From Octopus sinensis (Eukaryota), in the NCBI RefSeq assembly GCF_006345805.1, contig NC_043012.1, positions 31,558,001 to 31,622,000 of the forward strand: 64,000 bases of DNA, in the 5' to 3' direction. Below the pieces are notes generated by a model, which was given only the letters and a program-made list of their open reading frames with translations, was not told the origin of the DNA and made no database searches. The position numbers and the translations under genes were made by a program. Positions 3,647 to 63,680 of this stretch are shown here, in pieces (the first letter of the stretch is position 1; each line of letters opens with the position of its first letter).

Positions 3647-3805
3647 AATGATAATAATAATAATAATAATAATAATGATAACATCGAAAAATACCCAGAT
3701 TCGAAATTTACCCAAGACACCTGATGAAGGCTGGAGGGTATATCAGCCGAAACGTTGTGTTAACAACAAACAAGATGAGGACAATAATGTAAATAAGTAC
3801 ATTCA
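3401..3805 (+). mobile_element. Composite element: inverted copy of the 3' end (3401-3515), tRNA-like head (3516-3593), (AAT)n, HHR-containing tail
   Basis: A-box-like GCGTAGTGG and B-box GTTCGATTCC; 3432-3515 is the approximate reverse complement of 3737-3804. Confidence 0.75.
3716..3761 (+). ncRNA. Minimal type I hammerhead ribozyme motif
   Basis: GACAC-CTGATGA-A-GGCTG-loop-CAGCC-GAAA-CG-TT-GTGTT: stem I GACAC/GTGTT, stem II GGCTG/CAGCC, palindromic ACGT stem III. Confidence 0.8.
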
Positions 3806-4518: not shown

Positions 4519-5485
4519 ACCTCACCCGCCTGTTCGGGACGACTTTCGGGCCAGGGCCCATGGACAACTTCCAGAGATCCCTGGCCTGGCAGTGCTACCG
4601 AGAAGCGCTACCCGTTCGGGATAAGCTCTACAGACACGGCTCGAGAAACACGGGGCCGACCTGCCCGAGATGCGGTCAGAGCGACGGAACCGTTCTGCAC
4701 GCACTCGTGCAGTGTCCAACAATTTCCGACCTGTGGGCTTATGTCGAACAACTGCTGTCACGTGTGGGACGAGTCGGTTTATCAGCTGAGTCTATCGTCA
4801 ATATTGTCACGTCTCCTTCCTTCAAAAGGGAAGGAAGAGCTATTTTCATCATCCTTGGGGCCATGGCAAAAGAATGTATCTGGTGGACGCGTCTGAAAGG
4901 ATTGGAGACAAACACTTTCCTCTCTGGTCAATCTCTCATCAACTTCTTCAAGTACCACTTGAAAAGGAAAGTGAGAGTAGAGAGACAAGTTTTGTCTAGC
5001 GAATGTTTTAAAAAAAAGATGGGTGAATGTAGCAAGGATGCCACCTTGAGCATAATCCTATGAACCCAGTAATTGAAAACAGAGGGTTACCCACTTGCAA
5101 ACAAATGTGGTAACATATAACAATATTGACCGAGGTTACCGTGGTCTTTTTCGTAGGCTTTTCTTCCCACGGATAAACCTTATCTGCTTCCCCCTTTACA
5201 CCGTACATCATGACACTGTGATACACGATCCCTATTGATCGTTTTTTTTCCTCTTCCCCTTTTTTCCCCTTTTTTCTTTTTTTTTCCTTTTTCTTCTCTT
5301 TTGTTTCTTTTCCTTTTTCTCCCCTTTTTTTCCCTTTTACGATCCCTTCTGATCGAAAACCTACGCCACGTTTTTTTTTGTTTCTTTTGTTTTTTGTTTT
5401 TTGTTTTTTTCATCCCCCAAAAGAAAAGCTCTACATTGTAATTTGTCCCATCTGTGTGCAGCCCTGTGTGGCCAATAAAGAATTT
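4519..5485 (+). mobile_element. 5'-truncated L1/Tx1-like LINE: ORF2 C-terminal zinc-binding region plus 3' UTR
   Basis: ORF 4335-5063 contains [16 protein letters not shown]...[19 protein letters not shown] (CCHC, zf-RVT-type) and KECIWWTR; T-rich UTR ending in AATAAAG; (TATC)n on both sides. Confidence 0.85.
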
Positions 5486-14336: not shown

Positions 14337-14545
14337 AATATATATATATAATATATATATATATATAATATATATATATACAAATCAAATTGCGATAAAA
14401 TAAAAATAATTATAATCGCTGGTATTACTAACACAAGCCATATATTTTTCATATATCAGTACATTAAGGCGAAATATGTGCTAGGAACACAGAAGCTAGA
14501 TAAATTAAGTGAAATGAAGATAAAAACATTTACTAAACCAGTAAT

Positions 14546-14617
14546 TCTCAGACTGCAGTTTCTTTCTTTTCAGCAATAAAGATAATTTATTTGCCCAGGG
14601 AGAATTCTTCAGTGAGA
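14546..14617 (-). ncRNA. Type I hammerhead ribozyme motif, monomer 1
   Basis: Minus strand: TCTCA-CTGAAGA-A-TTCT...AGAA-A-GAAA-CTGCAG-TC-TGAGA; GUC cleavage triplet, palindromic stem III ACTGCAGT. Confidence 0.8.
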
Positions 14618-14940
14618 CCCTGTTTTTCTGGGATCCTAACTCACTAGAAGCATGTGCGTCTAATGATTTACTCTCCCTAACTATCATATCACTGCGCAGA
14701 CTCCGAACGTCCCGACAACACTAGGGAATTCTGGTATATCGCCTGGCGCTCATAATTTATCGAGAAATATGTAAACAAATCAAATTGCGATAAAATAAAA
14801 ATAATTATAATCGCTGGTATTACTAACACAAGCCATATATTTTTCATATATCAGTACATTAAGGCGAAATACGTGCTAGGAATACAGAAGCTTGATAAAT
14901 TAAGTGAAATGAAGATAAAAACATTTACTAAACCGGTAAT

Positions 14941-15011
14941 TCTCAGACTGCAGTTTCTTTCTTTTCAGCAATAAAATAATTTATTTGCCCAGGGAGAATT
15001 CTTCAGTGAGA
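14941..15011 (-). ncRNA. Type I hammerhead ribozyme motif, monomer 2
   Basis: Same core and stems as monomer 1. Confidence 0.8.
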
Positions 15012-15329
15012 CCCTGTTTTTCTGGGATCCTAACTCACTAGAAGCATGTGCGTCTAATGATTTACTCTCCCTAACTAATCATATCACTGCGCAGACTCCG
15101 AACGTCCCGAAACACTAGGGAATTCTGGTATATCGCCTGGCGCTCATAATTTATCGAGAAATATGAAACAAATCAAATTGCGATAAAATAAAAATAATTA
15201 TAATCGCTGGTATACTAACACAGCCATATATTTTTCATATATCAGTACATTAAGGCGAAATACGTGCTAGGAAACAGAAGCTTGATAAATTAAGTGAAAT
15301 GAAGATAAAAACATTTACTAAACGGTAAT

Positions 15330-15397
15330 TCTCAGACTGCAGTTTCTTTCTTTTCAGCAATAAAGATAATTTATTTGCCCAGGGAGAATTCGTGAGA
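15330..15397 (-). ncRNA. Hammerhead motif, monomer 3, core disrupted
   Basis: A 4-nt deletion (plus strand GAATTCGTGAG versus GAATTCTTCAGTGAG) removes CTGAAGA. Confidence 0.6.
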
Positions 15398-15567
15398 CCC
15401 TGTTTTTCTGGGATCCAACTCACTAGAAGCATGTGCGTCTAATGATTTACTCTCCCTAACTAATCATATCACTGCGCAGACTCGAACGTCCCGACAAACA
15501 TAGGAAATTCTGGTATATCGCCTGGCGCTCATAATTTATCGAGAAATATGTATATATATATATCGAG

Positions 15568-28500: not shown

Positions 28501-31067
28501 ATTTCTGCGATATCAAAGAAACATCTTGAATCTGAATTTCTTTGCGATCACAGAAAATATGTGTAGTTTATGAGGTATATTTCAGTCAAAAATAAAAAGC
28601 TAAAATATTTAATGCTTCCCTATAAAGATTATTATTTCTTTTTGACTAAGTTAGATGTTGTTGCTTTTCTTTTGTCCCGGGTCAACCATGAATGAGCCGG
28701 ATAATAACAAAAGACTTTGTAACCCATATACGAAGTGGTAACATCTCCTTTGTTTTATGGGCATTTAGAACTATATTATCGAATCGTCCTTTTCTTTTTT
28801 AAGAGGTTATTTTGAGAACAATGCGCTCGCTGTTTCTAACAAGTTTGATTACTGTCTAAAACTCACTTCGATAGCTTGATTTATAGACGTCAAGAGACAA
28901 AAGTTATTTCCATCGCTTACTGTCGAACTATTAACCATACCAGAGGCAATGTTACTAAATGTTTAAAGCAGTGTATTTTGTCTGACGAGGGATAACCATT
29001 ATCTCTCTTTCATAAATAGGAGACTTGGTTATTCACAAAAGGATGATCCTTATTTATTCGATTATTTACAAAAAATAATTTTCAGCAAGAAAATCTGATC
29101 TCATTTCGAATCAGGAAGATCCATAGCCAGATAGACACACATGCGTATATATATAATCGGTTTCCGTTATTTTAGACTGATTAGGGCTATATCCTCCTCT
29201 GGATACGACGCTGGTTTGTCAAGGGAAATTTGCTCACAGACGAAACTAATAGTTCAAACGTATGAAATAACTCAACTGGGTATTCCACCAACAGCTAGGA
29301 GTAGTGAGTCATATCGTCTACGTATTCTATGTAATCTACATAGATATAAGTGGATTCAACCGTGGAAAACTTAAATATTTCGGCAGTACAGATGATTGAC
29401 CGCGCGTCGCTGGCTCCTTTCTTGGTTCTTCATTATTCAATTAGTGGACAATTATCTTGGATCTTACGTTGTTTATAGCAAGAAAGACTTCCCGACATGT
29501 AAGAAACTAGTCTGGTGGGCCTGTAATAATTTTCAAAACATTTGGCAATCGTGCATTTCATACTTAACAAACACGGTCTTCTTCAGTATATCTTTTCAGA
29601 GTATTCTTCTCTATGAAAAAGAAGCTTCAAGGCTTTTCACGAAGCTACAAAATAACTATGGTCTGAACAAAAGGCTAAAGAGAAGATTAATGGACCCCCC
29701 CCCCCAGCTGTATTTCTGTTATTTAACACAACATTTGTTAAATGCTATACTTTAGAAACGTCTGCATTCTTGTAGACAGCAAAGCCAATTTATCTTAACT
29801 TGATGCTATCAAGTGATATACGCAACATGAAGTTGAGGACATAACAAAGCTAATAACGAAGAGAGACCCTTGGTATGGCACTAGAGATCATTGGTATGGC
29901 ATTATGAAATGCATCTCTGTTGCAGCCACTTGGAATTAGATTTTCTGAAAATTAGTTCTGAAGTTTTCACGTGGCAAATTGTTGGCTGCATATGTAAATA
30001 TCAACTCAAAGAGAATTGTATAAAATGTTTAAAAGTTTTGAGGAGCTGGGAATATTAGGTGTAGAGTAGTCCTTTCTACTGGAATTAGTTGTAGCGATCT
30101 GAGCGGAGTTATTAAGTCAAATTCTGAACACTGTTCCTTCTTAAAAACATATTAATAACTCGCATTGTTCTGATGAGCTAGATAACAAAGCACCGAGTCA
30201 ATGTAGCATGATACTAGATATTAAACACCATACAAAACACTCTAAGTAATAGCTTTCTAGCTAACAATAGAATTATTTTTTTAAAGTTAATATTCAGACA
30301 TTGTATTGACAAAATGATATGTTGCAAAATGCGTTAAATCTATGTTTTGGTAATTTTAACAAAATTGGCAAGTTTAGCGTTAGTGTTATTAATGGCGTGG
30401 TTGACAAAATAGGCAAATAGAGATAGTTTACTTAGATACAGAATGCACACCAAAATAATTATTTGAAAACGAAGACTAAATTTTTATCGAGAATTACAAA
30501 TAAAAGATTACAATGAAATGAATGAGCGTCCATGTAATCATTTCTGTTTCCGTGTAATTATTCTTCAGAATGAGATATATTGAATTAAAAGTTTGTACTG
30601 GGTGAACCAATGATAGCTTCAACAATTTTGTTTTTGAAACATTTGTGCTTCAAATATTGATAATGTAATTAGAACAGCTGCATTGTTCCCACTGCAATTG
30701 TTTTTGGTTACTGTTTCTTTCTGTTAGATATTTATATTTTTTTATACTTTAATGGAGATAATAGCTTTGCCAACATTATAGTGTTTATTTTTTTACTTTC
30801 TCTGCTGTGTATTTTCACTAAAATATATTCTCATTTCATCAATCCCAATTTCATGTTTTGAGAATATTTACCTCAGGTACATTTTCAATATAGCTCTCAG
30901 AATTTCTTCAATGTGCAAGAATCTGTATTGTATTCAGTATTCGTATAAGATATGCATGTGGGGATAAAACAGAATAAGGTTGTGTAAGGTAATTTTCTTT
31001 TATCGAATATTTCCAAATATCTCTAAAATCTATTTTATACATATTCTTACATACGTACATACACCCG

Positions 31068-31110
<43 letters not shown>

Positions 31111-31511
31111 TTACACATATATACATATATATATGCATGCCTACACACATATATACATATATATACCTGCACACTTACATACATATATATGTATGCACAC
31201 TTACATATATATATATATATATATAATTTCAGCAATTGAGGGTAAAATTAATTAATTATTAATCAATTTCACCAAGTATTCAGTATGTAAAGGGACCATT
31301 TTAGGCGAATTCAAAATATTACATTATATATAAGGGCTTAGTAAAATAAATTACTTTGCCACATACTGAACTCATTAGAAATAGCAGCTAAAGAAATTTC
31401 TTCAGCTATTTCTAATACTTAAAGAAGATCTCTCTCAGATAGTGTTTGCCTAAACCAACTCACAAAGGTATGGGGGAAAAAAACATTAAAAAATCAAGTG
31501 CAAAGGTTATT

Positions 31512-31563
31512 TGAGAACGTACGTTTCTAGATTAGTCAATTCGACATTTCTTTCGTCAGCTCA
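31512..31563 (-). ncRNA. Type I hammerhead ribozyme motif (left arm)
   Basis: Reverse complement of 32148-32199. Confidence 0.7.
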
Positions 31564-32147
31564 GAATTCCTTGAATCGGATTTGGGAACACTGAAAGTTG
31601 GGAGCATACCCTTTCGGCTTCTCATCACCTCTAGAATTCTGCTCGAACTAAAAGTGCTATCAAATTCGAATATGCAAGCGAAGAATTTCTGCTCTCCCCT
31701 TTCCACCAGCGTGGGTTAAAATTGACAAACACCATGTATTAACGGTGAAGACCGCAGCATTTAACAGAGAGAGATGAATTATAATTTCAGCAATTGAGGG
31801 TAAAATTAATTAATTATTAATCAATTTCACCAAGTATTTTGAATTCGCCTAAAATGGTCCCTTTACATACTGAATACTTGGTGAAATTGATTAATAATTA
31901 ATTAATTTTACCCTCAATTGCTGAAATTATAATTCATCTCTCTCTGTTAAATGCTGCGGTCTTCACCGTTAATACATGGTGTTTGTCAATTTTAACCCAC
32001 GCTGGTGGAAAGGGGAGAGCAGAAATTCTTCGCTTGCATATTCGAATTTGATAGCACTTTTAGTTCGAGCAGAATTCTAGAGGTGATGAGAAGCCGAAAG
32101 GGTATGCTCCCAACTTTCAGTGTTCCCAAATCCGATTCAAGGAATTC

Positions 32148-32199
32148 TGAGCTGACGAAAGAAATGTCGAATTGACTAATCTAGAAACGTACGTTCTCA
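32148..32199 (+). ncRNA. Type I hammerhead ribozyme motif (right arm)
   Basis: TGAG-CTGACGA-A-AGA.aat.GTC-gaatt-GAC.taa.TCT-A-GAAA-CGTACG-TT-CTCA; palindromic stem III ACGTACGT; stem II is weak. Confidence 0.7.
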
Positions 32200-32378
32200 A
32201 ATAACCTTTGCACTTGATTTTTTAATGTTTTTTTCCCCCATACCTTTGTGAGTTGGTTTAGGCAAACACTATCTGAGAGAGATCTTCTTTAAGTATTAGA
32301 AATAGCTGAAGAAATTTCTTTAGCTGCTATTTCTAATGAGTTCAGTATGTGGCAAAGTAATTTATTTTACTAAGCCCT

Positions 32379-32421
<43 letters not shown>

Positions 32422-35400
32422 ATATGCATACTTATACACAAAGTTATTCACAAGTATATTGATTGACATACATGCAGACATGCACAGGAACATATACGTA
32501 TGTATATACATCTCTTATTCTTAAACAAGAATACTATTGACAGCAACTTTGCATATATACATGCACACGTATACGAAAGTAGGTTCACACACACACACTC
32601 ACACACACACACACACACACATACACACACACACACACACACTCACACACACACACACACACAAATACACATTGGTCATGCTGGAATATTGTCTTTATCA
32701 GACATGCTGTGTGGGTAGGAAAATATGCAAAAAACAAGCAATTGAATATATACAGGCCTTTTGATATTGTCTGAAAGACGAGACTCTACCCGGCCCTTAA
32801 AAGTAGATCTGTAATCCATGGTGAGATATCAAGCATGATTGAAGATTTGCAGAGGGAAAAAAAGGAACTGCGAACGTTTGTGGGACAAAATAAAAATGGT
32901 ATATCATTAACAAACCTGGAAGACCACTGTAAAAATCAGTACATATATCGGGTTCTAATAACCCTCTTAGGCTTAGTTTAGATGTGAACGTCATATAGGA
33001 ACCTTTAGTTAAGAATGAAAGCATATCATAACATCCCCAAATAGTTCAGAGCTCCTCATCCTTTTATTTAACAGTCCAATAGGTCAATGGCTGAGGAGTA
33101 TAAGTGTTGGTCGAGTGTTAAGTCTTGCAGTTTATATGGTGGGCATCAGAAGAAAGAATATAACTAGCTTACTAAACCATTAAGTGGAATGGCGAGGAAG
33201 TTACCCTGGTACGGACAACAGATGGGAATAATCAACGCCTAAGGATTAAATAAAGGATTCTTCGCCAAATTCCGAGAATGGTATCTTATTCGATGCACGC
33301 CTGAAGAAGGCCTGAGCATAGAACGACAGAAATGTTTTGAATATAACAACCCTGAAGAAGATACTAGTCCGAATATTTTAGTGTATAATAAAGTCGTGTT
33401 TGAGAAATCCTGTCAAAGTGACAAATATTCCTTTCCTGTCTGTATTACCTAAATGTTTGCAATACATAAATGTTTTCTTATATTATGCCGTATGTTCCTT
33501 TCCTTAAAATTATTTTAACAATTATTTTACTCCCACTTCATTTTAGAACAAGTTTTTGTTATATCCAATTGTAATTTAGGCTGCTTCAATTTGCTATATT
33601 TTATCCCGTCTGACTCAATTCACAAAGCTTAGAATACATTACTATTCAATATTAATGAAATTTTCAATATTAGTCGTCTAGATTTTATTAACATGATTTA
33701 TTCTCCACTATATTATATTTTGTAACATTAACTATTAATATTAATGTAGTTGACAATATTAGTCCAACATTTTATTCTGCTTGTTTCGCTTAACCGTTGT
33801 ATTAATCTGTCTTAAAACAATACATTATACATATCTCCTCAGAACGGCCAATGGATTCCAATCATTAAACCTCAACTTTGATATTACTTCTCCTTCTCAG
33901 TCAAACCTCAATTACGCCTCTTTGCCCAACCAAAACTATTCGCCACTTCAGCTAATACTATTGATTCTCTGCCGTCATATATTCATTGTCACATCGTTTA
34001 TGAATGATTTCAAGTGTACTTAAATTTTTCCCATTCTTATCTCTCCTCAATAATTATACAGCTCATTCTTCTCATCATATCGTATTCCCTTTTACTGCTA
34101 CTGTCCGCAACGGTCTTATGTATCTTAGCTTACTTTTAATCCTTTTAACTCACTTAAGACCGGCTTCAGCATCAACACAATCTATCCATCATTCCAAATT
34201 TCAATACACCATATCCCACCTAAGCTTTAACTAAAACTCGCCATATTCCCGTACAGTTTTCATTTAGCTTTTAATATCTTTGCTCTGTTTATATTTTTAT
34301 TTCAACTTCAACGATGACTCCGAGGGTTTATAAACTTATCCCCGCCCCCTTGCGATCTGTTAAGTTTTGTTACAACTTTAACATACCGTAACTTACCCAT
34401 CGCTTCCTATACATAAGCATTTTTATTTACTTCAGTGTAGAACAATTCTCTTCTTTAAAGTAGTTTAGAAGTGGTTTTCTAACACCTGCTCCTCTCATTT
34501 GAATTTACAAGTGTTGATCTCACCCCGCCCGCAGTGAATTCTTTATCTTAAATTTATCAGTTCACTCTTTGATAAATTTGCTTTGAAATAAAACAAAGAA
34601 GCTATTTATAAGAGGTTTCTCGATTAAAAATCAATATTCCAAACTTACACTTCATATAATGAATACTTTGAAAGCTTGCCTAACAGATATTTAAAAATAA
34701 GTATGTGTGTATATTATGTGTTTATGAATGCATGTGGATATATTTATGTATGTAAGCATGTATAATACTTACATACATACATATAGACATACATACGTGC
34801 ATACATATTTATATATATGTGTGTGTGTTTGAGTGTGTGTGTGGACATACATGCAAACACATCACACATATATACATATAGAGACACTCATAGCACACGC
34901 ATACAGTTCATATACAAACACACATATATAACATACATATACAAACGCGCACGAATTCTAGCCGAATATTGGTTTTATGACCGAATCAACCGTTGAAATG
35001 TCTGGTAGAGATTTCCTTAGGAGTCGAATATTAACGAATGGTTGATGAGGTCAGTTCAGACAGAAATATTTAAAATCACAAAAATAAACAAAAACATTTG
35101 TAAAATGAAGCATTTAAGAAGCCCCTTAATAAAACTTGACCTATATTCGAAAAGGAATTATGGGATAGGGAAACACGATTATGTGCGTTATCTTGCAGTT
35201 TCCTGTTTAAAATATATTTAAATTCTGTCTACAAATATTAAGTAAGTTTTAACTCTGTATCCCCTTGTTAATAATATTTTTCTTAAAGATGTCAGGAGAA
35301 ATAACTTTTACCCTTTAAAATGTTTATGTTTACTCACTTTAGTTTACATTAGAATAATTCAAGAGTCTTATGATACTTAAGAAAAAAATTTAGGACCAAA

Positions 35401-60517: not shown

Positions 60518-60576
<59 letters not shown>

Positions 60577-60628
60577 TAAAAAAAACAAGTAAAAAATAGA
60601 AAATGCTAAAATAATTTTATAGTGAACA

Positions 60629-60672
60629 TTTCAGTACCGGTTTCGGTCATTTTGAGACCTTTTCAACTGTAA
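60629..60672 (-). ncRNA. Minimal type I hammerhead in the PLE terminus, with U3-A8 covariant core
   Basis: Minus strand: CAG-TTGAAAA-GGTC-tcaaaat-GACC-GAAA-CCGG-TA-CTG; palindromic stem III ACCGGT. Confidence 0.75.
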
Positions 60673-61438
60673 CGATTAAATAATTAAATTTAGAAAAATT
60701 AGAAGAAAAGTTTTTTTAAAAGAATATTTCTATAGTAGTGTTCAGATTTAAGTGGCATTCTGCCTTTCTCTGACTCCCTTGTTTGCACTTGTGTGTTCGA
60801 GGGTTGTGAGTTCTTGTGTGTAGTAGGTAGGTAGTAGAGTGAAGGCTGGTGAGGAAAGGGGGGTGGGAGAATCTGGGAGTGCCCTGATGGTCGTATTTTG
60901 AATGGTCAGTGGCGGCTGGCAGTCTCAGTTCAATTCAGGAGAATATTTATATTGACAGGCTTGTTTATAGAATTAGCGTAGGTGTTATACTAAAAAACAT
61001 TAGTGACAAACTTAAGGGGTAGGGGGTGAGAAGAAGAAGAAGAGAAGAAGAAGAAGAAGAGAAGAAGAAGAAGAGAAGAAAGGAAGAAGAGAGAAGGAGA
61101 AGGAGAGAGAGATGACGATGATGGTGATGGTGGTGATGATTATGACGACGATGATGATGATAACGATGATGAAGAAGAAGAAGAAGAAGAAGAAGAAGGA
61201 GGAGAAGGAGAAGATGGTGGTGATGATGGTGGCGATGATGATGATGCCGATGATGATGATAACGATGATGATGAAGAAGAAAAGGAAGAAGAAGAAGAAG
61301 AAAAAAACAGAGAAGGGAGAATATGAATGGGTGTAAATATAGCTATGAAGGGGCTGATTAGTAATGGATTCTATGGAGTGTGTAGTATTGGTGTGTGTAT
61401 ATATATTTTTTTTCTTTTATTCTAAAGTTGAGGTATAT

Positions 61439-63586
61439 TAATTGTTTGTCGTAGACCCGTTAAGAAGTGGCTTGTATTTTGTAATAAAGAGATTTTCTTT
61501 ACTTATTCGTTGTCTCGAGGTTGTATCGTCCCTAAATTGGTAGAGGGGGAAAATTCTGAAGTTTGGTGTTTTTTTTGTTGGCGCAAGTATCTATGTGTTG
61601 GCTAAAAGCTATTTTTGTTTTGGGGAATTTTTATCTGGGATCTGTGCAGGGCCATTCGTTTACGCAAACCATTTTTTGTTTGGCCTATGTACTGCTCTTG
61701 ACACCCGGAGCAGGTTAGTGAGTATATTAGGTTCTCCGAAGCACATGTGAAGTTGCTTTTCACTGTAAAACGTTGTCCCTGTTTGAAGGAGAACTCAGAA
61801 CCCTCGATTAGATAGTCGCATATCCCGCAATTGGGTCTTCCACATTTTTTTACTGTCGGCTTCTGTGTTGAAGAGTGAATTCGGCTTGTGTAAGGAGACT
61901 TTTCATGGATCTAGGCTGTCTTTTGCTTTTTATGATCGTGTGTGTTTGGAGGATTGTGTTCATTCTGTGGTCTTTTTTTAGGAGGGGTATGTTGTGGAGG
62001 ATGGTGTCGAAGGCTTCGTTATTGAGAGGGTGTGTGTGGAGATGTATGGTAAGGCTTTTGGTTGTAAGTTTTTCTTTGATTTGGATGTCTCAGTTCCTTG
62101 ATGTTAAGTTGAAGGGCACGTTGAATGCATTTGTCAATAAGTGAAGGTGGATAGTTCCTGGTGATTGGGTATCTTTTAGTTCTTGTAGTCGTGTGTCTCT
62201 GGTGTTTGCGTTAGAGACTATAGTGCATATCCTTTTTGCTAGATTGAAGGGGATATTCATCCTGGTGTGTCTGGGGTGGCATGAATTGAATGGAAGATAT
62301 TGCTTAGAGTCTGTAGGCTTATAGTATATGTCTGTTTCTATTATATTATTAGCTTTCTTAATGAGGATATCGAGGAAGGGGAGTTGTTGTTGGCTATATT
62401 CCATCGTGAATTGGATGTTTACGTCCAGTCCGTTTAAAATTTTCTGGAATTCTATGAGTTTTTCTATATTTTTATACCAAAGGATGAACAGTCATCTAGA
62501 TATCTCTTCCAGTTGTTTTCTATGTAGATGGAGAAAGGGCTGCCATATCTTTCTAGAACCTTACGATACACAGACTGATCTCTAGGTATCCTATGACTAG
62601 GTTGGCAAAGGAGGGGCCATTCGTGTACACATCGCAGTCCCCGATTTTTGTCGGTAGAAGTTGTCATTGAAGGCGAAGAAGTTATTTTCCAGGATGAATT
62701 TAACCCCTTCTATCACAAATTCTTTTTTGATGCGGTGTGTAGTTCGTTGGCGTGATTCTCTAGCCAGAATTGGATTGCCTCTAGTCCTAGGTTGTGGGGG
62801 ATATTGGAGTAGAGGTTGACTACATCGAAGAATACCAGTATGGTGTTTTTGTTTATAGTATTCGGTAGGTGATTGAGCAATATCTAAGTCGTCCCTTATA
62901 TAGCTTTTGACATGTTTGAGGAGTGGTTTTAACAGGGTGTCTAAAAAGTTACTGAGGCGGTGGGTTTCGCATGCGGGACCTGCTATTATGGGTCTCAATT
63001 TGAGGTCATTAGGATTAGGGACTTTAATTATTTTGTCTGTAGCTATCTTGCATGCGTTGCTTATTTTTTCACTTTTGTGGATCTTAGGTATACCGTAGAA
63101 TTGGCTAGTTTTACTTGTGAAATTGGTCATATAATCATATTCTTTGTCGGTTAGCCCTGCTTTGTATGGGTTTACTATGGATTTTAGTTCCCTCATTATT
63201 TTTTGTTGACTGTAGTTTTGTGCCTTTTCATAGTATGTTGTGTCTTCCAGCATAGAAAGTACCAAAGTTATGTAAAATGTCGTATCCATTAAGACAACAG
63301 CACTCCCTTTATCGGCCTCTTTGATTGTTATTGTTTTATCTAGTTTTAATTTGTTCAACTCAGCCCATTCTTTTTTGCTGAAGTTTGGTTTGTGTTTTTG
63401 TTTGTGCATATGTTGATATGGGTAATTTGATATGTGGTCACAGAAATCATCAAGTGTTTTATTCTTACCTTTCGAGGGGGTGTAGTTACTCCTATTTCTG
63501 GCTAACGATTCGTCCTCGTTGTATTTATCGTATAGCTCCTCAGTAAGTCTTAATTTTCTGCAGAATTCTGCGATGTCTTCTTTCAT
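61439..63586 (-). pseudogene. Frameshifted PLE reverse transcriptase / GIY-YIG endonuclease ORF
   Basis: ADKGSAVV, FYGIPKIHK, LRPIIAG, FDVVNLYSNIP, YRQKSGTAM, WKRYLDDC, LPFLDI, YYKPTD...SCHP, CGRPNCGIC, ENLIYSLTCSGCQEQYIGQT and ENLFITKYKPLLN, spread over several frames. Confidence 0.92.
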
Positions 63587-63680
63587 TTCATTTCATTGTA
63601 GTTGGTGGTGTTATATATATATATATATACTAGCAGTATAGCACACACAGATCCTGCCTTATATATATATATACAGATTA

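Follow-up and report, generated by a model that had tools for sequence, protein, structure and literature searches.

Near the middle of the 64-kb window (the whole stretch of DNA analysed), which is animal DNA rich in microsatellites, positions 31325-31838 and 31873-32386 are exact reverse complements of each other over 514 nt each (100% identity in an exact sequence test). The two mirror-image arms are separated by a non-palindromic 34-bp spacer (31839-31872) that is the reverse complement of 31281-31314, and a 59-bp direct repeat places the sequence of 31222-31280 again at 31780-31838. The underlying unit is a non-coding monomer of 558 bp with a GC content of 35%; written out in tandem, this 558-mer contains, without a mismatch, both the reverse complement of 31222-31838 (617 nt) and the sequence of 31835-32386 (552 nt). 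Arms, spacer, direct repeat and monomer had all been proposed in the original prediction, and their coordinates proved exact, as did the placement of (TA)n on both flanks.

The unit is numbered in the sense of its hammerhead motif, with p1 at 31838 and p558 at 31281. In this numbering, the left arm runs toward the left flank through p1-558 and then p1-59 (617 nt), while the right arm runs toward the right flank through p521-558 and then p1-514 (552 nt). The arms meet 5' to 5' (head to head), and their RNA-sense 3' ends both face outward into (TA)n. The features of the locus are:

31071-31221, no strand: left flank, a TA-rich microsatellite tract, the putative target
31222-31838, minus strand: left arm, 617 nt or 1.1 units of the 558-bp monomer, 3' end toward the left flank
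31222-31324, minus strand: one-sided, tail-like extension of 103 nt beyond the outer end of the right arm
31512-31563, minus strand: type I hammerhead motif, predicted cut after 31516
31835-31838, no strand: 4-nt overlap at the inversion junction
31839-31872, plus strand: 34-bp spacer, unit sequence in the register of the right arm
31835-32386, plus strand: right arm, 552 nt, 4-18 nt below one full unit
32148-32199, plus strand: second hammerhead motif, predicted cut after 32195, on the opposite strand and 593 nt from the first
32387-32425, no strand: right flank, a (TA)n tract

The ends of the locus and the integrity of the inverted repeat

The outer ends show TA-type overlaps with the target of 4 nt on the left and 8 nt on the right. 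The left and right flanks are unrelated to each other and show no mirror image; no matching copy of either was found elsewhere in the 64-kb window, the empty site could not be rebuilt, and no target-site duplication is readable in the (TA)n. In a list of 15 inverted pairs for the window (the arms of a pair lying within 3 kb), the 514-bp arms form the sole long perfect pair and, a 97-nt pair internal to the locus apart, the other 13 are at most 91% identical.

Perfect identity of this kind is also what would be expected of an assembly or library artefact, either a fold-back chimera or a pair of arms homogenised by polishing. In keeping with this explanation, the arms are 100% identical while units 3 and 2 of a 395-bp tandem in the same window differ by 16 gap columns, perhaps residual read error, and no read spans the locus, the best run containing 0.84 of the sampled words. 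However, chimeras are symmetric and have mirrored flanks, whereas the flanks of this locus are unlike each other and its centre is displaced, exactly in register with the unit. Polishing with reads of the family would yield the family's A and not the near-private G that stands at three places (described below), and the layout agrees with that of real inserts of Penelope-like elements (PLEs). We therefore regard an artefact as very unlikely.

The TA repeats at the start and end of the arms would suit a fold-back DNA transposon or a MITE, in which the arms would be 514-bp terminal inverted repeats and the target duplication would be of TA type, and an older palindrome of about 150 bp at 1510-1660 consists of related end sequence. 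This explanation is highly improbable, since the 103 nt outside the left mirror point (31222-31324) are element sequence that is continuous in contigs of the family, and the unit repeats head to tail and carries a hammerhead motif. The palindrome at 1510-1660 is old, with 80% self-identity over 102 nt; its sequence resembles the 558-bp unit's terminal 90 nt at about 70% and both its outer ends lie near the same terminus, so that it is possibly a stump insertion of a related family. Elsewhere in the window are what we take to be, from a motif judged by eye, the remnant of a mariner transposase (about 1700-2338) and a LINE fragment with a zf-RVT domain at 4551-5060 on the plus strand (PF13966, E 2.7e-07).

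The hammerhead motif and its family in sequencing runs

Each arm carries one hammerhead motif, as had been predicted from the sequence, made up of a helix I of 4 bp, CUGACGA, a helix II with a basal A·A, GAAA and a helix III that is a palindromic octamer. Among metazoan motifs, a palindromic helix III is described as the form that depends on dimers (PMC4209133). A type I descriptor was composed with the motif already known, which favours matching; it requires at least 4 bp in helix I, CUGANGA, at least 3 bp in helix II (whose basal pair may be mismatched), GAAA, helix III and UH. It gave four matches in the window, two in the arms and two in units of the 395-bp tandem. The same descriptor matched 1 of 20,000 dinucleotide shuffles of the monomer and none of 30 shuffled windows. 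At the gathering threshold, the window holds no Rfam hammerhead (0 matches of any model), and at E<=10 the 44 sub-threshold matches in 31000-32600 are mostly to miRNA hairpin models and include no hammerhead. The motif is atypical in its helix I of only 4 bp, in its cut triplet GUU and in pair 10.1-11.1, which is not the usual G-C.

The 395-bp tandem occupies 14372-15552 as three units in (TA)n, with the descriptor matches at -15006 and -14612, a helix II whose basal position is A·A, and a helix III that is palindromic. It shows no significant similarity to the 558-bp unit (best E 0.08), in agreement with the proposal that the palindrome belongs to a second, unrelated retrozyme family. Other hammerhead-like sequences in the window are a PLE-type minimal motif at 3711-3765 on the plus strand and two decayed CUGAAGA motifs at 33301 and 33352 on the plus strand, 51 bp apart, all of which fail the stricter type I descriptor.

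When the unit is folded as a circle, the predicted pairing probability is about 0.45 for helix I and about 0.8 for helix II, and the fold as a whole is more stable than any of 60 shuffles (z -5.3). Free folding of four stretches around the hammerhead gave stabilities not above those of shuffles (z -0.1 to 1.8). A strong fold is predicted for 31215-31430 on the minus strand, the part of the unit that contains both outer and both inner ends (z -6.4; 0 of 200 shuffles as stable), making it a candidate binding site for the mobilising enzyme. Coding capacity is minimal: the longest ATG-started frame round the circle has 34 aa, the two stop-to-stop frames scanned (59 and 62 aa) have no match in Pfam, and the RT plus GIY-YIG ORF of an autonomous PLE is absent from the unit.

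Each strand of the locus has a single hammerhead, against the two consecutive units, each with a whole hammerhead, that Li et al. use as the criterion for an active copy; this concerns the present copy rather than the family. Since one dimer-dependent hammerhead is present per strand, this copy alone is predicted to be unable to release a monomer. Of nine predicted retrozyme dimers assayed for cleavage in a published study, eight stayed uncleaved (bioRxiv 10.64898/2026.07.22.740005).

A search of sequencing runs returned 24 listed runs, of which 20 contain the stretch or part of it and 11 at least half of its words; these runs come from 10 studies and carry four organism labels, and no RNA run is among those listed with the stretch. 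One unit (31281-31838) was aligned to the contigs of four of the 24 (organism labels A, B, C and A), with run X1 covered to about 76% and run X9 only guessed to be RNA; contigs show neither strand, ends, circles nor expression. Matching contigs number 7939, 2023, 448 and 121 per run, and the head-to-tail unit junction is present in all four runs and under three organism labels. The family is abundant, and it is diverse across the three labels. The original prediction of a very recent event holds for the insertion, whose arms are identical, but not for the family, which is itself abundant and diverse in three organism labels. Pattern scans gave no match in metagenome contigs and none in viral contigs; a lone 29-nt AT-rich match in a prokaryote genome (n=1, L001) was taken as chance.

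The best support for the hammerhead fold comes from variation at 31528, where an alternative letter, accounting for 71, 61, 58 and 84% of summed contig depth in the four runs (contig depth is not copy number), turns the A·A into an A-U and completes the predicted helix II. Replacing the window letter with this majority letter does not lower the free energy of the isolated helix II (-3.2 against -3.3). Copies of the family keep the hammerhead core, as judged from contig variants: none falls in the 27 core positions among 40 of the 45 rows (P=0.13, not significant alone). Of the variants at paired positions, 11 of 16 keep the pair and five break it, and one more restores a mismatch, which is unconvincing for conservation of structure.

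Two further observations bear on how the locus arose. First, at 31790, where the window has G, all four runs have A in 99.99-100% of their depth, and this near-private G stands in all three copies of the position (31232, 31790 and 31921, read on the minus strand), indicating that the pieces come from one template lineage. Secondly, loose ends at 31333 run into TA-rich letters in 17 contigs of X1 and 2 of X9 (2 of 4 runs, among the 24 of 228 rows considered), and the right outer end is probably a regular terminus of the family. No joint with a change of strand was listed, and neither reads nor contigs span the locus, the junction lying at the edge of the stretch and contigs showing presence only.

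The same runs bear on another possible origin, in which the unit would be an autonomous PLE's pLTR and the locus an ORF-less stump insertion of that element. The anatomy is the same as that of PLE stumps, PLE hammerheads 100-700 bp apart on opposite strands have been described (PMC4209133), and retrozymes are reported to be related to pLTRs (bioRxiv 10.64898/2026.07.22.740005). However, the unit closes head to tail in 4 of 4 runs, the share of contigs continuing into unlike sequence is 0, 0, 0 and 0.04 (a low-copy parent would stay invisible here), and the longest ATG frame round the circle is the one of 34 aa. We consider this origin unlikely.

Proposed insertion of a retrozyme by a Penelope-type enzyme

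The data point to a model, to which we assign a probability of about 0.7, whereby the two identical retrozyme arms in (TA)n arose by recent insertion of a retrozyme in trans by the reverse transcriptase-endonuclease of a PLE. A TA-targeting enzyme, probably of Neptune or Naiad type, would nick both strands of the tract, and each 3' end would prime cDNA synthesis on retrozyme RNA with an intact hammerhead site, at two priming sites separated by about 103 nt (unit positions ~514 and ~617). From ~514, the cDNA would extend for almost one unit and stop at 521, where its last four bases would pair with their complement 34 nt back, located either on the same cDNA or at the end of the second one; extension would then complete the mirror image, and both pairing routes would lead to the same product. 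We infer priming from both target strands because two outward 3' ends lie in TA, each with a short overlap.

The inversion junction carries some information on this last step. The chance of an overlap of at least 4 nt at random inverted junctions is 2.3%, 4-nt snap-back sites are available at 75 of the 558 unit positions, and folding indicates that the snap-back hairpin alone is not stable. Moreover, p515-520 are found only in the left arm, so pure snap-back is insufficient and must be complemented by a second template strand. The two inner ends each fall at the 3' base of a predicted helix (27 sites, 5-nt windows; joint chance roughly 6% by our own estimate), which is suggestive only.

The same product could in principle have formed without a reverse transcriptase, if an ordinary tandem was inserted first and, after a DNA break at some later time, the end folded back at the interrupted inverted repeat of 4 nt. 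Formally, the product is a fold-back whose loop measures 34 nt, resected ends that self-anneal are reported to give inverted duplications (bioRxiv 10.1101/2024.12.14.628481), and the shared private base would be accounted for. However, after 31931 the right arm continues into the unit and not into the left flank, so that the present left arm cannot be its source; six bases of the left arm are missing from the right arm; and the flanks are unmirrored, with the right outer end on a recurrent terminus of the family. We judge this route quite unlikely.

The arms place limits on the RNA template. Both arms cross the predicted cut site intact, which means that a cut linear monomer cannot have been the template. 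The original prediction of a circular or multimeric template stands to the extent that the template was either longer than one unit or circular; circle and multimer are indistinguishable in the product. We take the template to have been a single RNA species and hold the odds about even between a ligated 558-nt circle and the uncut read-through of a young, homogeneous tandem, as linear RNA of 655 nt or more in which one hammerhead stayed uncut would explain the arms equally. The right arm ends 4-18 nt short of a full lap (the range reflects end ambiguities). This hints at a circle, on which a stop just short of the lap would be expected if the enzyme met its own primer; by a rough post hoc estimate such a stop would occur by chance in about 3% of cases, but a hairpin is also predicted to have its 3' base at p521.

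Only tentatively do we go further and read the locus as the footprint of a Penelope enzyme that reverse-transcribed circular retrozyme RNA from both target strands. One cDNA would then have made its way along the 558-nt circle until it halted 4-18 nt ahead of its own primer, the other having made 1.1 laps, with the near-private base present in every lap, and copies with a helix II weakened by the A·A would have stayed uncut long enough for insertion; the A·A at this position is shared with the 395-bp family of the window. Use of the retrozyme circle to template reverse transcription has been put forward as a proposal without demonstration (PMC7229834). Arms of lap length at many loci would testify directly to the circRNA step that has been proposed for animal retrozymes.

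It had also been suggested that the perfect inverted repeat could form a cruciform and, if read through, long dsRNA. A non-palindromic 34-bp spacer disfavours cruciform extrusion from duplex DNA, and the first possibility is unlikely at this locus. A hairpin in single strands, or a 514-bp dsRNA upon read-through, is plausible; a perfect hairpin of 514 bp would, if read through, give long dsRNA. Inverted Penelope copies are reported to yield siRNAs in transgenic Drosophila (PMC3681739).

Relation to Penelope-like elements, L1 and retrozymes

The PLE-type layout recognised in the original prediction matches the published head-to-head anatomy. PLE insertions have been described as a partial tandem with an inverted, 5'-truncated copy, a one-sided tail of 30-40 bp and (TA)n targets (Craig et al. 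2021, PMC8557442), and head-to-head is reported as the most frequent arrangement of PLE inserts (Arkhipova et al. 2013, PMC3846280). In Pen2a_Av, the direct and the inverted pLTR share an overlap of 15 bp, and the inverted one falls 37 bp short of the direct one (PMC3846280). The present locus likewise has a direct and an inverted copy head to head with a short central overlap (4 bp here, 15 bp in Pen2a_Av), an inverted copy that is shorter at its 5' end (by 38 nt, against 37 bp in Pen2a_Av), an extension at one end only and a target that is AT-rich or (TA)n. It differs from PLE inserts in its lack of an ORF, in arms that are one whole unit long, and in its extension of 103 nt in place of a 30-40 bp tail.

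Published work on PLEs offers precedents for the proposed steps. Head-to-head centres were read as self-priming on the antisense strand (Arkhipova et al., PMC3846280), and a purified PLE protein cut and extended both strands (Frangieh et al. 2024, PMC11167929); the same protein started internally at two adjacent RNA sites and preferred uncut RNA (PMC11167929). The window itself contains a broken PLE at 60574-63611 on the minus strand, with RT, a CX4CxxC linker and GIY-YIG at the C terminus, frameshifted and with (TA)n on both sides. By motif, as judged by eye, this element is Neptune-like, and a hammerhead-like variant lies near its 3' end. The CX4CxxC linker has been tied to microsatellite targeting in Neptune PLEs (Craig et al., PMC8557442). 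The 558-bp unit shows no similarity to this PLE, the one compared (best E 0.21), which is thus not linked to it as an autonomous partner.

The nearest named mechanisms are twin priming and dual priming of L1 (Meyer et al. 2010, PMC2837659), in which, as proposed here, cDNA is primed by both target strands and two inverted pieces are joined centrally. In L1 twin priming, however, the pieces come from different stretches of the RNA and an internal part is deleted, whereas here they overlap by 514 nt, and unlike L1 insertions the locus has no poly(A) and no readable target duplication.

Retrozymes, head-to-head inserts of PLEs and opposite-strand hammerhead pairs are all already in print. By title and abstract, no octopus or cephalopod retrozyme was found described in the open literature searched; nor was a head-to-head retrozyme with reverse transcription of circular RNA, or the present family, found in the main texts of that literature. 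Against that literature, the analysis adds an abundant retrozyme-like family and a clean case of an element that has no gene of its own but is laid out like a Penelope insertion; the partnership that has been proposed between PLEs and retrozymes gains support here from structure and not from co-occurrence.

With metazoan non-LTR retrozymes the unit shares its non-coding, AT-rich tandem organisation, its one type I hammerhead with a short palindromic helix III and its predicted well-paired circle, and the weak base of its helix II resembles that of the axolotl HHR_Amex2 (U·U). At 558 nt, it is larger than the 170-400 nt given by Cervera and de la Pena (2020, PMC7229834) and lies within the 51-972 bp given by Li et al. 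(2026, bioRxiv 10.64898/2026.07.22.740005). The locus is set apart from these retrozymes by its head-to-head arrangement, with one hammerhead on each strand.
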